DNA of 64,000 nt from Tricharina praecox (lineage: Eukaryota), in the NCBI RefSeq assembly GCF_024521635.1, contig NW_026250413.1, positions 992,001 to 1,056,000 on the forward strand, given 5' to 3'. A model generated the notes under the pieces. It saw only the letters and a list, made by a program, of their open reading frames with translations, was not told the origin of the DNA and did no database searches. Each line of letters begins with the position of its first letter. Positions within the stretch are counted from its first letter, which is position 1. The position numbers and the translations under genes are program-made. This document shows, in pieces, positions 51,333 to 64,000 of this stretch.

Positions 51333-53400
51333 ATGAGAGAAGTCATCTCCCTTAACGGTGCGTACCCACTCCAGCAGCAGCTGTTGCGGCAAAAACAACT
51401 TACCCCGCCGTTTCAACGACACCTACCCCTTATCCCCCAACACGCGTGATCCCAACACCAATCGATGCTTCATCCCGGAAACTTGCAGAGAGCTGCCCTT
51501 GCTGACCTACGTTCGCGATAATAGTCGGTCAGGCCGGTTGCCAAATTGCCAATTCTTGCTGGGAGGTGGGTTCATCGATTCCGAGCTCTATATAGTGGAA
51601 CTCAGAATATGCTGACAACGGTTCTTTCAGTTGTACTGCCTTGAGCACGGTATCCAGGTACATTCATCTCCATCCATCCTCCGGGGTCAAACCGGTTCGC
51701 CACCTATAGTTGTCGACGCGATTTGCAAGACGGCGGCGGTGGTGGGACGGTGGTGGCTGCGGATGCGGTGGCGGCCTCGACGCCACCTCGCATATGCACG
51801 TTCATCGATGAGCATCGTAGCTAACGCGTGGTCTTTGTTTGTAGCCTGATGGTTACCTCACCGAGGAGCGTCGGCAGGGTCCTCAGGACCAGGGGTTCAG
51901 CACCTTCTTCTCCGAGACAGGTACGCGAAATTCTACCATCCCCCAACCTTCTCCCGCCATCATCGGCGGCGACCTTGCCGAGAGCTTGCCCGGGTCGGAT
52001 GATGGTGGGTGGATTGCGAGAGAACAAAGCTGATGGAAAAAAGGTCAGGGAAAGTACGTTCCTAGGACAATCTACGTCGACTTGGAGCCCAATGTGGTCG
52101 ACGAGGTGCGGACTGGTATCTACCGAAACCTGTTCCACCCCGAGCAGATGATTACAGGAAAGGAGGATGCTTCGAACAACTACGCCCGTGGTCACTACAC
52201 CGTCGGAAAGGAGTTGATTGACCAGGTTCTCGACAAGATCCGCCGTGTTGCCGGTACGTTTAGCTATATATCCTGGCCACCGATGGTCATCCAAACGCGA
52301 TTGCTAACGTTCTACTCCAGATAACTGCGGTGGTCTCCAAGGTTTCTTGGTCTTCCACTCCTTCGGTGGTGGAACCGGTTCCGGATTCGGAGCTCTGTTG
52401 ATGGAGCGCCTGTCCGTTGATTACGGAAAGAAGTGCAAGCTCGAGTTCTCCGTCTACCCTGCTCCCCAGGTGTCGACTGCCGTCGTTGAGCCTTACAACT
52501 CCATCCTGACCACCCACACCACCCTCGAGCACTCCGACTGTTCGTTCATGGTCGACAACGAGGCCATCTACGACATCTGCCGCAGAAACTTGGACATCGA
52601 GCGCCCCAACTACGAGAACCTTAACAGGCTCATCGCCCAGGTCGTCTCTTCCATCACCGCGTCGCTCCGTTTCGATGGTTCCCTCAACGTCGATCTCAAC
52701 GAGTTCCAGACCAACCTGGTGCCCTACCCCCGTATCCACTTTCCTCTCGTGTCGTACGCCCCCGTCATCTCGGCGGCCAAGGCCTCGCACGAGGCGAACT
52801 CGGTCCAAGAGATCTCCAACTCTTGCTTCGAGCCCCACAACCAGATGGTGAAGTGCGACCCCCGTAACGGAAAATACATGGCCACCTGTCTGTTGTATCG
52901 CGGGGACGTCGTGCCCAAGGAGGTTCACGCCGCCGTTGCCAGCATCAAGACCAAGAGGACCATCCAGTTCGTCGACTGGTGCCCGACCGGATTCAAGATC
53001 GGTATCTGTTACCAGCCTCCCCAGCTCGTTCCCAACGGTGACTTGGCTAAGGTTAACCGTGCTGTGTATGTTACCCTGCATTGTCCGTCATGTGTTTCCC
53101 CTGACTAATGATCGCGTTTAGATGCATGTTGTCGAACACCACCGCTATCGCCGAGGCATGGGGTGCTCTTAGCGCGAAGTTCGACCTTATGTACAGCAAG
53201 CGTGCCTTCGTGCACTGGTACGTTGGTGAGGGTATGGAGGAGGGAGAGTTCTCCGAGGCTCGTGAGGATTTGGCTGCTCTTGGTAAGATTCCTGTTCTTC
53301 TACCGACAATGAGCGTCACTAATGCTCCAGTGCAGAGCGGGATTACGAGGAGGTTGCCACCGACTCCGTCACCGACGATGTCGAGGAGGCCGAGTACTAA
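51333..53400 (+). CDS. TUB1: Alpha-tubulin; exons 51333-51357, 51525-51565, 51631-51657, 51845-51920, 52044-52253, 52321-53065, 53122-53282, 53336-53400
   Basis: [34 protein letters not shown].., GGGTGSG GTP-binding motif, [38 protein letters not shown]. Confidence 0.97.
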
Positions 53401-54097: not shown

Positions 54098-55355
54098 TTA
54101 ATCCTCAGCCTCGATACACATAGTAATGAGCTCGGGCTCGGGGGTGAGCTCGATGACCATGTCCTCGGCGACGGCGTCGACGGAGTCATTGGTAATGTCC
54201 AGCTTGATGGCCGGTTCAGGCTCGATGTAGTTAAGGGAGCTGACGGCGGCGGCGGCGGCGTCGTCGGCGGGGAGGAGGTGCTGCTCGATCGTGTCTTGCT
54301 GCTCGTGTTCGATGTCTATCTGCTGCTCGATCTCGATCTCGACCTCGATCTCTGACTTGATGTTGACGGGCATGACGTCGAACTCTGGCTTGATGTTGAC
54401 CTCCGCTGGCATGATGTCGAACTCTGGCTTGATGTCGACGTGCTGCTGGTGCGCGATGATCGGCGAGATGTCGGCCCCGCTATGCTGGACGGCGGGCTCG
54501 ACGGCGATGGGCTCGGCGGCGATGGGCTCGTGGGCGATGGCGAAATCATTGCCCGGCTCGCAGGCGAGGTTGCCGATGGCTGCTGCCTGGCCGAGCCCAG
54601 CACCCACATGCGCCTGGAAAAACTCCTGTGCACCGCCTATCTCCTCCACGTGCGGCCCCGCCGCCGCCCCCGCTCCACCCAACACCAACCCGCCCATAAC
54701 GCCCACCAAGCCCCCGCCCGTCCCAGCTCCGCCGCCCTCCCTCCCCCTCCCCCTCCACCTAATCCTCTCCAAAGCGCCCTTAATCATCGGCACCTCCTCC
54801 GCATCGACCTCCTCATCATCCTGCAGCCCCAGCCCCAGCCCCAGCTCCATCTTAACCCCGCCGTGCTCCATCTTGAACCGTGGCTCCTCGTCGTCAAAGA
54901 GCTTTGCACCCTTGCCCCCCTTTGCCACCCCACCTCCCCCGCTAGACCCAGACCAGCCCTTCTTGCGCTTTCCTCCTCCTCCAATAGGAGGCGACGCCGT
55001 CGCAATAGGCTCGTCGTCAGGGTCGAAGGCGTATGGATTATCTCGCCGGTATGCGTTCGCTTTGTCTTTGATCTTCGAGATCCGGTGTGATATCGCCTTT
55101 GGGGTTACGGCTGTGGGTGGGGTTAGCCGGGGGTCAGGGGGAGGGGGAGGGGAAGGGAAAGGAAGAGTTACTGTTGCCCATGGCCTTTGCCAGCGCGATG
55201 TAGTCCAGCTTGACGACGTGCAGCTTGAGGACGTTGGCGAAGAGCTGTTTCAGTTCACCGTTAGTCCCGTGCCCTTCGCCCGTGCGTGCAGAAAAAGGTA
55301 GGTAGGTAGGTAGCCATACCCGCGCATCGGCCTGATCATTCCACTGCATCGGCAT
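54098..55355 (-). CDS. Small Myb/SANT-like helical-domain protein A with acidic tail; exons 55355-55320, 55244-55172, 55110-54098
   Basis: Spliced N-terminus MPMQWNDQADAR|LFANVLKLHVVKLDYIALAKAMGN|TVTPKAISHRISKIKDKA. Both introns have CTAAC branch points and keep the frame into the 276-aa ORF. Confidence 0.8.
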
Positions 55356-58193
55356 CTTTGGCGGTCTTTTGCTGTCTCTGCTTTGCTGTCCAGTTGTCGT
55401 GTACTACGTATACACGAAAGAGAGGAATATCCGGCTTCTGCGGATAATGTGGGACGTTCGGTCTGGCGGCGAGGGAAGGGAATGGAAGGGGCGGTTTTGT
55501 GGCGGGGCCGTCCGCTGGCCGTGGAGGTGGGGCTGGGAAGGACCTGCCTGCGGGGGATTGTTTGCTTCTTTGCTCCGTTGGGCGGGCGGGCCTGCGGTGT
55601 TTGACGGGTGGCTCGCAGATGTTTGCCGGACCGCCACGCCTTTGATGATTTGATACGGTTGATTGACGGAAGCCCACGGAAAAGTGGAAAACAACAATGG
55701 ATCGCGGACCGCGCTGCGGGGCCGCACCTGCCCGTATATGTGCGGGTGCGGGTGCGCCAGCGGACAAAAAAGGCCCAAATGGGCCAAATGGGTCGAGTGA
55801 CAATCATTGCTCGCCTCAATGCCCGGGCGGTGGGGTTGACATCCGTGATAATGGGAAATTGCTGCGGACAGATGTGGGTAATCTGTATGTGCTGGCTGGC
55901 TGCGTGTGTGGGCGTGATGGAGGCGGGCGTGGAGGCGGGCATAGCGTTTGTGTATTTACATACGTAGAAAGCCCCCAGAAGCACGGCAAGTCATTTGGAT
56001 TTTGTTCACTGGCCATCCACGACTGGTCTGGTCGGCCATAGACATGTCGCAGGATGTGTGGCGTACGCGTACAGGCGTGCTCATCACTCATAGGTGAGGA
56101 TGGCCGATATATCTGTGGCGTTGCGGCGGGCTTGCACATCATATTGTGTTTGTGCTCGCAGAAAGCCACCCAATGTGGCGGTACATACACTGCGAATCAT
56201 GCATTCTCATCCACGCTCGGGCATAGAGTACCTAAAGTTCATATGCATGGCCGTTTCTTCCCAGCCCACATATCCCAGCCCAATTGTCTACCAGCTCCGC
56301 CAACCCTCTGCGCCCCTTCCACGCTTCCATCAAACACCCCCATTGCGAAATGGGAACACGTGGGACGGGACGGGAGGACGGTGGGGTACCTACAGCAGAG
56401 GCCAGACTGCAGGGTATCATTGGCGGGCTTTGGCGGGAGCACCAGAGTATCACTCGGCTCGGAATTTCTAATCCCACGTAACTATGGGATATTCAGGCGA
56501 TCCTACGGGGGCAGGCAGTGGAGAAGTGCACTTGTCCGTGACGAAGCATGATACCAGTGATTTTCGACGTGCAAAATATCCACGCTACGACGGGATGGTG
56601 ATTCCAAAAAATGGAGCGGGAAGCCCGTTGGTGGCCAGGTTCTCGCGATACGCAGTCATCCGGAGGGGAATTGCACTTCTGAGCAAGAAAAGTGAGAAAG
56701 TGATGCATATGTTGTGGTAGTGTTTGCCTTTAGTGGACCGCGACTGACGACTAGGTAGTTGTGGCCAAAAGTTCGTCTTATGATTTATCCGATGCCGCCA
56801 GATTCCCGAATTCCGATCCACGGTGAACTTTGAAGCCCCGTGGCCGTAGCCGTGAAATCTGACTACTACTGGCACTTCCCCGAAGGTAGCGCGGCTTCGA
56901 TACTCGCAAGGGCAGGATGCTAGTTTCGAGTTTCAAATGCTGAAGCTTTCGCGCATGCCATTTGTACATATTCGGGAATCGGCATCGGCGCTTCGAAACG
57001 TAAACGGTATGTAATTGTATTCGCCGTTCGGGCCACAGGGCCACAGGGCCACAATCCGGCTCGAAAAAGGTGCTGAAACGGGCTTGGTTAGAAGCTGTCG
57101 AAGTTCCAGAATATGAATTGGCCATGGCTTACCCATCCGATGTTGGAACTTGGGCTGAACAAAAACCTTAGGATCGGGAGGCAAGGAGACGGAGGTGGCT
57201 CGGTAGGCTGGACGGTGCACATCGCGTCACTCGACTTTCCATATCGACGGAAGCTGGCTTGCCTCCATGGCCCGTGAAAAGTGCAGGCTGGAGTGTGATG
57301 GCTACGGTGGCTGAAGCCGCAGGAGCCGTATCGATAGATATACCACTATGGAGGGACGATTTGATAACAGATCGTGTCTCAGCCTGTAGAAGATGCAATA
57401 TCGACCGCGAGGAAGCAGCTCAGCTATGTTTCTACCCATATCGAGTCATGGACCGGTAATGCCCCCTCATACCCCGGTCCTTTTCACCGAACGTCTGAAA
57501 CCGTCGGTGCCCGTTAATCCTCAGGTAGCCGGCAGAGAGGGCGGCGTTGACTCGTGGTACGACAAGGCCGGCAATTTCTCGTGCAGATGATGCCAAAGAA
57601 TACACCAATATGTGACAATATAGATCTCAGGAGACGACTTCCTCTTGCACCTAGACGGAAATAATCTACCTATGCAATCACTGTCCCAAAAAAAAGCTTG
57701 CTGTTCACCGTGCGGCGGAGGCAAATCATAGATGCCGGAATCACTTCGGCCCCCCACCCGGCATGGAAGTGCAACTCCAGTCGCTTCGATGTCTCATGAT
57801 ACGGGCTCCTCTGGTCCAATGACAGAAGCCGAGCTCCCAATCGACAGTTTCTACCCTACATCCTACGTCCAGAAGATATTCGCCATTCTCACGGGAGGTT
57901 GCACACGGGCGAAACAGACAGACAGGACTGGTGGCCTCGCGGGCACGTGAGTATTCCTCGGGCAGTTTGCTATCTCAGGGCTGAGTGACCACATCCTGGC
58001 GGAGGGAGATGGTGTGTATGATACTATAGTACTTCCGCAGCCTTCCACAGCCCTTCGATTCTTCGAGCCATCTCCACGCATGGAAATCCACCGACCGACC
58101 TTCCTCATAAGCACCCGGGCCCCCATCCGCCCGCATCCTGTCCTGTCCGCCACCGACACCCCACGCGCAACAGGCATAGCTACAACCCGAACG

Positions 58194-58786
58194 ATGTCCC
58201 GAAAGCAATCCCCCACATCAAGCCTCACGCCCGACGCACGGTTCATGCGTCTGTGCTGCGCCGTCCTCGAGAGCATGGTCAACACGCCCAAGGTACTTAG
58301 TTCCTTCTCCTCCATCCTCTCCACCAACCAACTAACCCTCCTCTCACACAGATCAACTACACCCTCCTCGCGCAGAAGATGGGATACGCGAACGCGCGGG
58401 TCGCACAAGACAGCTACTGCCGCTTCCGAGCTCGACTCCGCGGCGACGCGAACTACGCCAATCGTGGCGGCGGCAAGAGCAAGAGCAAGAGCAAGGAGAA
58501 GTACCTGGCGAAGGTTAGGGGGTTGGGGGATGGCGAGCCGCCGAAGCATTACGATGAGCCGGTTGACGATGATGAGGAGGAGGTGAAGGGGAAGGGGAAA
58601 TGGCTGGTTGACGGGGAGGTGAAGGTGAAGGTCAAGGTGGAGAAGGAGGAGGAGGAGGAGGTGAAAGTGAAGGTGGAACAGAAGGTGGAGGTGGAAGAGA
58701 GAATGTATTGGGTGGTTAAGACGGAGCCTGATACCGAAGTGTGGGTCTGGGAGGGCGCGGATGTGAGTCATGAGCATCATGACTAG
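58194..58786 (+). CDS. Small Myb-like DNA-binding-domain protein B with basic then acidic tail; exons 58194-58292, 58352-58786
   Basis: MSRKQSPTSSLTPDARFMRLCCAVLESMVNTPK|INYTLLAQKMGYANARVAQDSYCRFRARLRG. The 59-nt GTACTT..CTAAC..CAG intron is phase 0. Confidence 0.78.
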
Positions 58787-58800
58787 TATTATCCCTAGAG

Positions 58801-60247
58801 TACACGCAATGCGTCAAATACGCATTGCAGGCGAGTGATGCGTTTTGCAGTGCGTCTGCAATGCGTCTGCAATGCGTTTTGCAATGCATTTTGCGATGCG
58901 TTCTTTTAGGTAATTTGCAGTGTTATCAAATGCGTTGCATTAATCTATAGTACTAGATACATCTGTGCCTTGTCCTCCTATGCCTTCCTACAGTTGCCTC
59001 GCTGCATATCACACTCCCACCGCCGCGAATAGCAAACTCTCCCTGCCATGAATACCACACTCCATCCATCTCTGCGGATAGCACATTTCCGTCGCCGGTG
59101 CCATAGCCGTCCTCGTCGCCGTTGTTGTTGCTGTCCTGCGCTGGCTGTCAGCATTTGGTCTTCACACACTCATCCCTCCCCAGATACCACGGTTCCATCA
59201 CTGTGGATGCCACACCCCACCCGCTGCCCTCGCTGTACTTGTTGTCCTTGCTGTCCTATGCCGGCTGCCAGCCAAGTTGGTCTTTCCACAGTGTCCACGC
59301 CGCGAATGGTAGCCCGCTGGCATTGTGGCGGAGTGATGGAGGAGCTGTCTGTGAGTGGAGCTATCAGCGAGAGGAAACGAATGTGGTAGTAGTGAGCATC
59401 AACTTTGGTGGGCATTGCGGGGTCGGCCGAATGAGGAGGGGGGGACTTAGGCTGGCACCCACAGGTTTTCTTCTTCTTTCTTGATCATCTATCGAATAGA
59501 CGGTTAACCTCCCATCTCCGCTCTCTCCTCTGTGTGTGCTCCTATCCTCGCCATGCCGGTCGACCTGGAGAAGATTCGCAGTAAAGACAGTGTACGATGC
59601 AGAAGTAAAAGAGAGAGTGTACAAAAGGACACGTTGTGATACCGAGTTTAACTTCTTGGTGACGAGGCCACAAACCTAGGTGGCGAGGTCATAAACTTAG
59701 CCACGGTGGCCTACCGCCGCCGGTGCTTCACCAGAAGAGCTTCACAGGTGGTGGATGTGGTGATGATGATGGTGATGAGAGAGAGCGCAGAGCACGGCGG
59801 CAGTATACCTAGGCAGGAGTACTCCAACATCACATGATGCGCATCGCGAAGGCCAGCATCATCGCACTGTCGACATGAACTTCAATAGACTATCGAGGTC
59901 GGGTTTTTATTGGAGTCTCGCGGGTTTACTCAGTCATTCCTACTCGGTGACTGGAGTCATTCCTTTAACGACTAGAGTCATTCTCTAACTGTGTGGTTTG
60001 ATTGAATCTTCCAAAGCTTCCCGGATGACATCTGTACGTAACAAAGACTAATACAACAACTTTCCCTCTCAAAGCTACTCCTCGTCTACCTTTAAAGTTT
60101 AGAGCATACCTCAGAGTAAAGCTTGGCAGAATTCGCGCATTTTTGGTAATAACGCAATTTTCACGGTGCGTATCTGTCACTAAAACTGTGCAACGCATTT
60201 TACGACAATTCGGGTGCAATAAACGCGTGATCAACGCATTGCCTGTA
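58801..60247. mobile_element. Possible degenerate non-autonomous TIR element
   Basis: TACACGCAATGCGT (58801-58814) matches the reverse complement of ACGCATTGCCTGTA (60234-60247) at 13/14 positions, with TA termini and ATGCGT/ACGCAT subterminal repeats on both sides. No transposase ORF inside. Confidence 0.4.
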
Positions 60248-61034
60248 CCCCAGGGATTAGGACTAGAGGATCGTAGGATCCCGGGTTTTAGTGTTTTGTA
60301 GGGACACTCAGGTGGATATGGATGGGAAGGCTTTGCGCGGTATGTGGTTGTGTACCTCGTCATAACGTTGGTCCTTCCGTTGGTCTATAATCAAGCACTT
60401 TTGTGGCCAGTGGTCGGCTTCGACACATGCTAGATCACTCGGCTTTTGGTTTGATATGAAGTCATCTAAAGTCGCTGTGTATAGTCTTTCACTCATAAGA
60501 TCTATACCTCTGGTGGTAAGTAGTGAAGGCAAACAACAGCAGAATCTTGCTAGCCGGTTTGGCACAGATCACGAATCGTGGAGAGCAAGACGAGTGAGCA
60601 GTGAGATCTCAGAACATGATATGTAAATTACACCAAGTAGGTAGTGCTTACGGGCTCGGCTTGGATATCAACATGGCTACGGTCCACAGAGCCTAGGCAG
60701 AAACAACAAACGAGGTCAACAAAAGCGTGAGACCATAAGTACGGTAGCCATCTCTCGTCCGGTATCGCCAAACAGAAGAGATTCAGAAGCCGAGCGAATG
60801 GACTGAGAGAGCATCATTGCAGGATCAAACGCCTACTAATATGGCCAAACTATAAAACTACAGAAACAAATACAACCAAAGCCCTCTACACAGCCCGCCC
60901 CGCCCCGTGCCGTCCTACCGAACCCATCAAAAAGTTCCCTCAGAAAAACTCAAAGACATTCTCCGCCTTTGTATCAGGCGACAACGGACTGGGCGGTCTC
61001 TCCATCTCCCCGTAGGCCTTCTGCACCCCCCTTC

Positions 61035-61588
61035 TCACCTCCCCGTCATATCCGCCGCCTTCCTTTTCCCCGTCACCGCGGGGATATCATACAGCCCCTC
61101 ATCGTCACTATCTAGCAAAAGCACCACGCCATTTTCATCAACATCCTCCAGCTTGATCTTCCGGCGTTCGCTGTTCCACTCAGGCTCGGGCTCGAGCTTA
61201 ACCTTGACGTCCTCATCCTCATTCTCCTCGTCATCCTGCACGCCGCCCAGGGCGGGACTGAAGCCTTTCCCCTCCACCCCCTTTGGGCTCTTTACTTTGC
61301 GAGGCGTTGCGAACGGCGATGGCGATGCTGCATCGGCGCTGAGCCGCGCTTCGCGCCGGAGCTTGGTGAATTGCGCGCTGTGGGGGGCGTTAATGAGGGG
61401 TGAAACAGTGGAAGGAGGGCGGGAGGGGGAGGGGGGAGGGGGGAAGACTTGATGGCACATGCAGTGTACGCTTCTAGACGCCCGATCCGGCGGACTTTCG
61501 CCCAGGAGATGCCCTTGAAGCCGACTTCTTCGCAGATGGCGATGAGTAGGCGGAGGTTGTGCGCGTCGGTCCAGCGGTTCTTGGGCAT
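61035..61588 (-). CDS. Small Myb/SANT-like protein C; exons 61588-61449, 61377-61035 (C-terminus may extend to 60940 if a 1-nt frameshift is corrected)
   Basis: MPKNRWTDAHNLRLLIAICEEVGFKGISWAKVRRIGRLEAYTACAI|NAQFTKLRREA. The intron has a GTCTTC donor, ATTAAC branch and CAG acceptor. The tail contains ATPRKVKSPK and acidic patches. Confidence 0.75.
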
Positions 61589-62626: not shown

Positions 62627-63301
62627 TTAGGGCTTCTTCTTGACTCCCCAAAACGTATGAAGGCCTTCCTTCGGTCCACCATCCTTATCCCTCCGTGCTT
62701 CCCAGGACTTATCTCCCTTCCCATCTGCCACAGTCGCCGGATCGATCTCTGGTCTATCCTTCCTCCTCCCCGAGACGCCGGCTCGGGGAGGATCGAACTC
62801 GATCGGTTTTCTATCTGTTGGTTCTACCATTCCCACATCAGCAGTGGGCCCTATCTTACTCAAGAGCTAAAGAATATGTAAAGAAGGAGGAGGAGGAGAG
62901 GGGAAAGTACTGCGCTCTGTAGGCTGAAGCGGCGCAGCCGTAGTCATGCCGATGTCTTTGATCCCGCTAGGCTCGGCTATGAAGTGGTGGAACATTGTGG
63001 GCTGGTTTGAGCCGTTGGGGGGCACGTGTAAGTTCCGGAATACTGTGCCTGTCGGAGAGCAGGTGCTTGAGGGGGATTTGCGGTAGGAACCGCTAGAGGA
63101 GGAAGATCTTGCGGTGTCGGGAATGCTAGCGGCATAGTTGGCTGTGGGGGTAATTGCGTCAGTAATGGGGAATCCAGAAGTAGGAAGATGGGACTAACCG
63201 GGACGGGGAGGGGTGACTGGAGCTGAAGCTGAAGTAGGAGAAGAGGAAGGAGGAGGAGAAGGCGAAGGAGTGTCATGGTTTATAAGTGAACGGATATCCA
63301 T
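62627..63301 (-). CDS. Hypothetical Ser/Pro-rich protein; exons 63301-63199, 63141-62911, 62850-62627
   Basis: MDIRSLINHD (MDIxxL(I/L)N-type start). Intron 1 (GTTAGT..ACTGAC..CACAG, 57 nt) and intron 2 (GTACTT..ATAG, 60 nt) each remove an in-frame TAG and give one continuous frame. Confidence 0.6.
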
Positions 63302-64000
63302 TGGTGTTATGTGTGTGAGAACGAGTGCTTCGGGGTTTTCTGGTCTCTGGAAGCTTTTTGAAAACCGAAGCTCGTTAGCTGATGTGCATATCCAGGTGAC
63401 AAGCAAACAAAAATGGAGTATGGATGATGGTGGGTGATACGACAGGCAGCAGTGGAACTAGCATGCGGATAATCGGATCCTTCACATACCACGCCGGCCG
63501 TGGGAGGAAGAAGCTTGGTATCATTAGGAAGGAGGAAGATGGATATGACACTTGGTACGCACCCCGATCGTCGCCTAGGTCTTTGACGTAGATGCCGTAA
63601 GTGACTTCGAAGATTAGCTCAGAGTTGCTACTTCGTCGATGGGCCGGAGCAAGCTGGAGGGACGAAAAAGGCTGGATGGTTCAAATCCTCGAATATGGGG
63701 TGATTCGGAGCATTCGAAGACGACGGACGAGGTTCCATTCTTAAACATATCCCCTCCGGCAGGATTGCTACCTCGAGGGGAGAGGTGGGCGAACTTTACC
63801 AATTGTGGCACGATAGGGCTAGTATACAAGAGTGTTCAATCGTCTATGGGCCTCTTTCACCTCACATTTTCACAATCAAACCGCGAGGAACGACAGCCCA
63901 GATCGTAAAAGGCGGTTCAGAATAGGGCTTGCTTATGGCGACTTAAAGAGCATTCTACTGCAGCCGCACATAGGTACATAGCAGAACTCTGGAAGCCGAG

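Follow-up and report, generated by a model that had tools for sequence, protein, structure and literature searches.

Gene clusters that are conserved in fungi are mostly known as metabolic. Animals and plants are known to have clusters of paralogous regulators, the animal Hox and ParaHox genes being conserved clusters of this kind. Among small DNA-binding domains, the fungal family PF22980 (Myb_DNA-bind_8) resembles the genes reported here, in that a three-helix domain of roughly 50 residues occupies the N-terminus of a small protein and a disordered tail follows; the family entry is silent on clustering. MYT3 and MylA are reportedly fungal Myb factors with two repeats. DNA binding by one Myb repeat alone is weak, and the plant proteins RAD and CPC are single Myb repeats that sequester partners rather than bind DNA, while SANT domains have an acidic face and are parts of large complex subunits. 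Here we analyze a stretch of 64,000 nucleotides from the pezizomycete cup fungus Tricharina praecox (contig NW_026250413.1, positions 992,001 to 1,056,000; the window), in which a preliminary description had noted three short neighboring genes, A, B and C, as a candidate module of divergent Myb/SANT-like proteins.

An array of single-domain Myb-like genes

A search of the T. praecox genome (38.4 Mb) with PF22980 gave a match 2.8 kb beyond the window end that led to further members of the family. An array of 19.4 kb, flanked by alpha-tubulin and YME2, holds eight single-domain Myb-like genes (A–H). It opens with A, B and C, and the remaining five genes lie past the end of the window, the array running 9.5 kb further (Table 1). 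The three genes are intact and spliced, on the -, + and - strands, just where they had been placed, their models being matched by orthologues and by the public model P0020; the proposed unit of three however gives way to an array of at least eight members. In an exon-wise genome search with the classical Myb family PF00249, utilized as a control, 24 matches were spread over 13 contigs and none fell in the array. One pair of small intronless genes, arranged head to head at C28:972065-973291, was also seen, in both of which a single PF00249 repeat precedes a similar helical stretch.

We lean, with slightly better than even confidence, towards explaining the array as an ancient cluster of paralogous regulators of DNA or chromatin that are controlled by the small ubiquitin-like modifier (SUMO), differ in their recognition helices and are held together by regulation at the level of the locus.

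Conservation of linkage

Co-location was evaluated in 10 loci of 20 kb around A orthologues, obtained by a scan of metagenome contigs and representing about five genotypes from three lineages. Further members were located within 10 kb of A in 10/10 of these loci, in varying arrangements that include two subtypes, W and I, seen in Tuber-like and/or Wilcoxina-like arrays. In L014 and L015 the order is tubulin-A-B-C-D with the X-5S-D block inverted (X being an unrelated gene described below), while the loci L016 and L017 contain D, X, a C-type, B, W and A and lack tubulin over the 10 kb that follow A. Tuber-like loci hold a B-type, W, A, a C-type, D, X and I, to the extent of each contig, and here the C-type, X and D are found on the opposite side of A. 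Tubulin adjoins A in only 2/10 loci. Linkage of A to G was also evident from accession numbers in 4/6 genomes, the two being, on contigs of equal length, 10 accessions apart in Trichophaea hybrida and 4, 5 and 5 apart in Tuber brumale, T. magnatum and T. aestivum, respectively; it was not seen in Pyronema omphalodes, where A and G lie on different scaffolds (489 and 755 kb), nor in Rhizina, where they lie on separate short contigs. Co-location is thus kept in three lineages with an altered order of members. The long-term clustering put forward initially is borne out, and linkage of the homologues elsewhere holds for four of the six genomes and is not shown by P. omphalodes and Rhizina.

Outside Pezizomycetes, fused gene models with separate family domains were encountered in 4/10 profile matches looked up, namely D+B-like+W in Aspergillus nanangensis, W+H in Psora testacea, H with another type in Xylographa bjoerkii and two C-types in Exophiala spinifera. 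That fused models can arise from neighboring genes is shown by P0011, which merges G with H of the array; P0004 from Wilcoxina, in which W is merged with A, was likewise judged an annotation error. The fused models suggest that family genes are neighbors in Aspergillus, Exophiala and lichens, although these models could be true multi-domain proteins and are the only form in which adjacency appears outside Pezizomycetes.

These arrangements bear on the possibility that the array is a relic of tandem birth, i.e. that real but independent regulators were born side by side and never separated, with no function in the linkage. Background microsynteny is high, as many microsyntenic regions persist between Pyronema and Tuber, which split at least 260 million years ago (PMC3778014). 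The split array of P. omphalodes, the freedom of member order and orientation to change and the presence of the unrelated gene X and a 5S gene within the array also fit a relic. The members stay together while their flanks change, however, as seen from the 2/10 loci with tubulin beside A, and judging by the fused models members may also be adjacent in two other classes. In P. confluens, moreover, LIN1, YME2 and alpha-tubulin are still linked according to Table S2 of the same paper, and the tubulin-YME2 gap of 11.6 kb, which holds a septin and two unknown genes, is too small for the array. As the flanks are linked there without room for it, the array is not fixed to tubulin and YME2. Linkage as a mere relic is considered possible but doubtful.

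Family orthologues were not identifiable by accession or length among 10,655 rows of the P. confluens Table S2, and in those rows no connection to the family was found for the neighbors of tubulin and YME2 (PCON_07631-07644). Small unknown genes near alpha-tubulin and LIN1 on P. confluens scaffold 340 (PCON_07634, 07641, 07643 and 07644) are listed in PMC3778014 as induced in sexual tissue.

Predicted fold and family assignment

In the AlphaFold2 model of E, helices span residues 6-19, 26-33 and 39-61 with a predicted local distance difference test (pLDDT) score of 79-91, and in that of the C-type relative P0116 they span residues 6-20, 30-37 and 43-59 with a score of 79-92. Both models end in a disordered tail, and the last two of the three predicted helices form a helix-turn-helix in each. 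The structural neighbors of E were mostly of the Myb type, including RAD (2cjj; Z 7.8, root mean square deviation 2.6, 59 aligned), SNAPc, PHR2, Cdc5 and ARR1 as well as CPC/WER-EGL3 complexes, while GT-1 (2jmw, Z 6.1) and Cdc5 were neighbors of the C-type model. These best Z scores of 7.8 and 6.1 lie in the range usual for unrelated small helical domains, and bacterial helix-turn-helix domains score within 1-1.5 Z of the best Myb neighbors.

Family profiles placed a single array member. D scored 50 bits against PF22980 at a cut-off of 27 (33 bits with exon 2 alone) and is the sole member to pass; B (14.0 bits) and E (14.2 bits) stayed under the cut-off, as did C-type relatives (14.7-16.9 bits), and no hit was obtained for G, H, the F entry or seven A orthologues. 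Pfam searches with exon pieces of A, B and C gave no Myb hit, a PDB sequence search gave nothing under E 0.2, and the ESM Atlas gave a weak lead from the A domain to a PF22980 cluster (0.82). Relatives scored 15-21 bits against PF00249, where 24.4 is required, and its three regularly spaced tryptophans were not found, the third being replaced in all members but D and the first being absent from both B and D. A weak profile match to c-Myb (E 0.23) aligned the first two aromatic positions. Lysine and arginine outnumber aspartate and glutamate in residues 38-60 of 8/8 array genes, which is a residue count and not a surface calculation, and by the same count an acidic third helix of the SANT type was found in none of the eight. 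The predicted structures support a shared three-helix Myb-like fold, and the net basic domains fit a Myb-like assignment better than a SANT-like one; of the Myb/SANT-like label given at first the former part is retained and the latter dropped.

A Myb-like fold need not imply DNA binding, as single repeats could act as micro-regulators that bind proteins and, like RADIALIS and CAPRICE, sequester the partners of larger transcription factors. The RAD single-Myb domain is the best structural neighbor of E (Z 7.8), CPC/WER-EGL3 is in the same list, and the proteins hold one repeat and no other folded domain, all of which would agree with such a role. Z differences below 1 are however ties, DNA-bound GARP domains score alike, the helix 3 region is net basic in all eight members and AT-hook-like motifs occur in 20/131 relatives, and we regard this role as very unlikely.

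Relationship among the members

The domains of A, B and C are pairwise 21-24% identical (12/57, 14/63 and 14/58), and the pairwise signal alone is weak (shuffle p of 0.008 for A-B, 0.025 for B-C and 0.149 for A-C). In profile-profile comparison A and C were linked directly (97.7%) and B was linked via D and W (B-D 94.6%, D-W 96.9%, H-W 97.2%, A-H 99.3%), while direct comparison gave 49.6% for A-B and 3.2% for B-C, with reversed controls at 0.1-7.8%. A tree of 53 domains and 62 columns, from which the automatic models L018_A, L018_B and L023_B were left out, resolved the groups B/D/W (96/91), C/F (96/85) and A/E/G/H/I (87/90). Six members (A, B, C, D, G and H) were each placed with a relative from another genome and not with an array neighbor; E was unplaced and F formed a long branch. 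Introns agree in part with these groups, as a phase-0 intron before helix 2 is common to B, D, F and W and a phase-1 intron before helix 3 is common to A and G. By these comparisons the eight genes are of common ancestry and fall into three old clades, with A, B and C in one each; the closest relative of B among its neighbors is D, beyond the window. The same three-helix domain in A, B and C, as had been proposed, is supported by the profile-profile links together with the models of E and the C-type relative. Recent tandem duplication was ruled out by the 21-24% identity and by clades that are older than genera, in agreement with the unlike intron positions of A, B and C.

A profile search with the family gave 1172 matches at E values up to 0.001, which include classical Mybs with several repeats. 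Four proteins (P0056, P0064, P0138 and P0175, two of them from Phlyctema and Nemania) show a multi-repeat form of the family, in which two to six additional helix 2-3 units come after one complete domain. Sphaerosporella brunnea has a pair of A-type copies (P0003 and P0008) with accession numbers that differ by three, the second copy seemingly frameshifted after helix 2. A lone PF22980 gene at C14:661364-661456 of T. praecox apparently has the same phase-0 intron before helix 2.

Selection, conservation and tail motifs

The ratio of nonsynonymous to synonymous substitution rates (dN/dS) was calculated for A-D and W without the three automatic models left out of the tree. Domain values were 0.02-0.36 in 13/15 pairs, the other two being saturated, and 0.02-0.05 for A against L014 and L016, which indicates purifying selection on A-D and W. 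The G domain has 35 invariant columns in 15 sequences from Pezizomycetes and Orbiliomycetes, with 44/54 residues identical to Orbilia, and the A domain has 41. Compared to L014, 58/60 residues of A are identical and 37-41 of 58-60 in B, C and D.

The tails were searched for motifs in 131 single-domain relatives. The SUMO-acceptor motif psiKxE was observed 127 times versus 18.2 expected, roughly sevenfold, in 84/131 relatives versus 16.7 expected, while four control motifs were flat in the same tails; motifs resembling sites of cyclin-dependent kinases (CDK) numbered 136 versus 23.9 expected and AT-hook-like motifs 41 versus 1.0, all in proteins that share kinship and are not independent samples. 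Within the array psiKxE is present in A (5), B (3), C (2) and G (2) and absent from D, E and F. Most C-types, including C itself, carry a terminal psiKxE followed by a hydrophobic/acidic stretch that resembles a SUMO-interacting motif (SIM), L016 being an exception. The motif listing of individual loci included the faulty models L018_A, L018_B and L023_B.

Conservation over the whole domain and not of the recognition helix alone, as in A and G with their 41 and 35 invariant columns, would be expected of interaction surfaces, and the SUMO sites of A and B together with the SIM-like motif of C could tie members to each other. This would be in line with an obligate heteromeric complex, in which the products join via their Myb-like domains in one DNA or chromatin machine and clustering balances dosage. 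The sets of subunits vary, however. W occurs in the L016 and L018 arrays and I in that of L018, and neither type was found by family-query searches of the T. praecox genome. Furthermore B, C and D evolve far faster than A and neighbor pairs change between genomes, which makes an obligate complex distinctly unlikely.

Interpretation of the array

The paralogous, SUMO-regulated cluster that we favor would have arisen through local duplication that preceded the split of the Pezizomycetes, probably early in Pezizomycotina. Each subtype would act in the nucleus as a small regulator and would recognize DNA or chromatin through its third helix, with a fixed specificity of its own, as helix 3 is unlike between subtypes and nearly invariant within A and within G. 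Since one repeat alone gives weak DNA binding, the members probably act in combination. The disordered tail may function as a switch, by which co-regulators would be recruited or released through SUMO attachment, SUMO binding by the C-types and phosphorylation in the cell cycle. Least certain is the last step, by which the genes would stay linked through regulation of the locus as a unit and not through one fixed complex.

Several results weigh against this explanation in addition to the background-range Z scores, the kinship among the 131 relatives, the restriction of adjacency to fused models outside Pezizomycetes, the high background microsynteny and the separation of A from G in P. omphalodes and Rhizina. 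Foldseek returned nothing below E 0.5 (best E 0.57). In the tree 19/50 forks are open, and the assignment of C and F to their supposed orthologues is loose. Non-coding DNA, the 5S gene aside, is held in common only with the closest locus, L014. One clear family member, that on C14, was found elsewhere in the T. praecox genome by family-query searches, a number that is a lower bound.

Gene models and neighboring features

The splice models of A, B and C are confirmed independently by orthologues and a public model, which reproduce their introns. In A orthologues from five pezizomycete genera, 46-51/54 domain residues are identical to the modeled A (5/5 compared), and introns at positions 12/phase 0 and 36/phase 1 are common to L014, L016, L019 and L023. 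The B splice junction is identical in P0020, which is the B model with a 109-residue upstream extension that was judged an annotation error. A phase-2 intron at the place equivalent to that of C is present in C-type genes of L016, L018, L019 and L023; in L014 the automatic model took a phase-0 site one codon off, and the phase-2 site is also readable there. Protein searches returned no entry identical to A or C. Pseudogenes or chance open reading frames were ruled out by the conserved introns and low dN/dS, and a transposon origin by the single-copy members and the lack of such a Pfam hit. Two non-coding stretches that look alike by eye, at roughly 59370-59440 of the window and 8775-8850 of L005, are possibly remnants of one repeat element. 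A real fusion of G and H, as modeled in P0011, was rejected since the two genes have separate start and stop codons and orthologues that stand alone.

Gene X is single copy and always adjoins D. Its last exon is 80% identical in L014, 57% in L016/L017 and roughly 40% in L018/L019/L023. The conserved motifs are N-terminal, central and C-terminal, the first being EAR-like, and neither a Pfam family nor a useful ESM Atlas match was found for the protein. The 5S gene is of the dispersed type, and in the closest relative it occupies the same site between X and D (L014:3562-3681). Window positions 7267-53400 hold genes with SWIRM, zinc knuckle, F-box/WD40, SAE2/CtIP, EH/UBA (Ede1-like), VTC, cyclin and alpha-tubulin domains.

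Table 1. Array genes and adjoining features in window numbering, which is continued past 64000; adding 992000 gives positions on the contig (C8).
Feature	Position	Strand	Description
Alpha-tubulin, 3' part	52308..53400	+	left flank, outside array
Gene A	54098..55355	-	exons 55355-55320, 55244-55172, 55110-54098; 373 aa; single Myb-like domain at aa 1-56, then long basic/acidic tail with five psiKxE motifs
Gene A introns	55319-55245, 55171-55111	-	phase 0 and phase 1, respectively
Gene B	58194..58786	+	exons 58194-58292, 58352-58786; 177 aa; three psiKxE motifs; domain of PF22980 clade, score under Pfam cut-off
Gene B intron	58293-58351		phase 0; position as in D, F, W
Gene C	61035..61588	-	exons 61588-61449, 61377-61035; 160 aa; C/F-clade domain
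Gene C intron	61448-61378		phase 2; weak donor
Gene X	62627..63301	-	non-Myb, mostly low-complexity; about 175-185 aa; three short conserved motifs
Gene X introns	63198-63142; 62910 to uncertain acceptor (62851, 62824 or 62815)		
Spacer at window edge	63302..64000	.	array continues past it
5S rRNA gene	66036-66155 (L004:5036-5155)	+	RF00001, 101.7 bits; within array
Gene D	67078-66589	-	134 aa; passes PF22980; public entry P0018 identical
Gene E	68694-69032	+	112 aa; without coding intron; public entry P0012 identical
Gene F	70750-71358	+	179 aa
Gene G	71821-72491	+	175 aa; most conserved member
Gene H	73035-73493	+	131 aa
YME2/RNA12, main coding stretch	75973-73772	-	right flank; followed by LIN1-like GYF gene

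Comparison with known systems

The domain type is already known and one member belongs to a Pfam family, whereas no description of the cluster was found. A literature search, which left most subscription papers outside its reach, gave no account of PF22980, of six member identifiers or of such a cluster. The array is easily overlooked, as most members miss Pfam cut-offs and annotation merges neighbors (P0004, P0011), and the general cluster finder CLOCI is stated to miss clusters of tandem homologues (PMC11381361). Such a grouping of paralogous regulators, some as highly conserved as G, would represent a genome organization of a different kind in Pezizomycotina. It also constitutes a defined, deletable locus for asking what the members do and why they are linked.

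With regard to PF22980, B, the W-type and Aspergillus relatives group with D, while the A, C, E, F, G and H types either stay under the cut-off, as B also does, or give no hit. The classical Myb domain (PF00249, c-Myb) has the same predicted fold and a basic third helix; the array genes are single-repeat and, in contrast to the classical Myb genes dispersed in T. praecox, clustered. SANT domains (NCoR2, ISWI, Ada2, DMAP1) have the same fold and are among the structural neighbors, but the array proteins stand alone and are net basic. Plant single-repeat Myb/GARP proteins (RADIALIS 2cjj, ARR1 8xas, PHR1/PHR2, LUX, GT-1, CPC) have a long third helix and are the top structural neighbors of E and the C-type, at 12-21% identity and background-range scores with no sign of orthology.

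At the level of the locus, the Hox and ParaHox clusters are likewise old tandem paralogues in one place with conserved DNA-binding helices that are specific to the subtype. A full counterpart in fungi would be a cluster several hundred million years old, in which some 8-10 single-Myb subtypes and the partner X form one regulated locus with a combinatorial, SUMO-linked chromatin code, for instance in tissue or sexual development; we find a parallel carried this far rather improbable. Hox and ParaHox genes have a different domain, and the order and orientation of the array genes are not kept.

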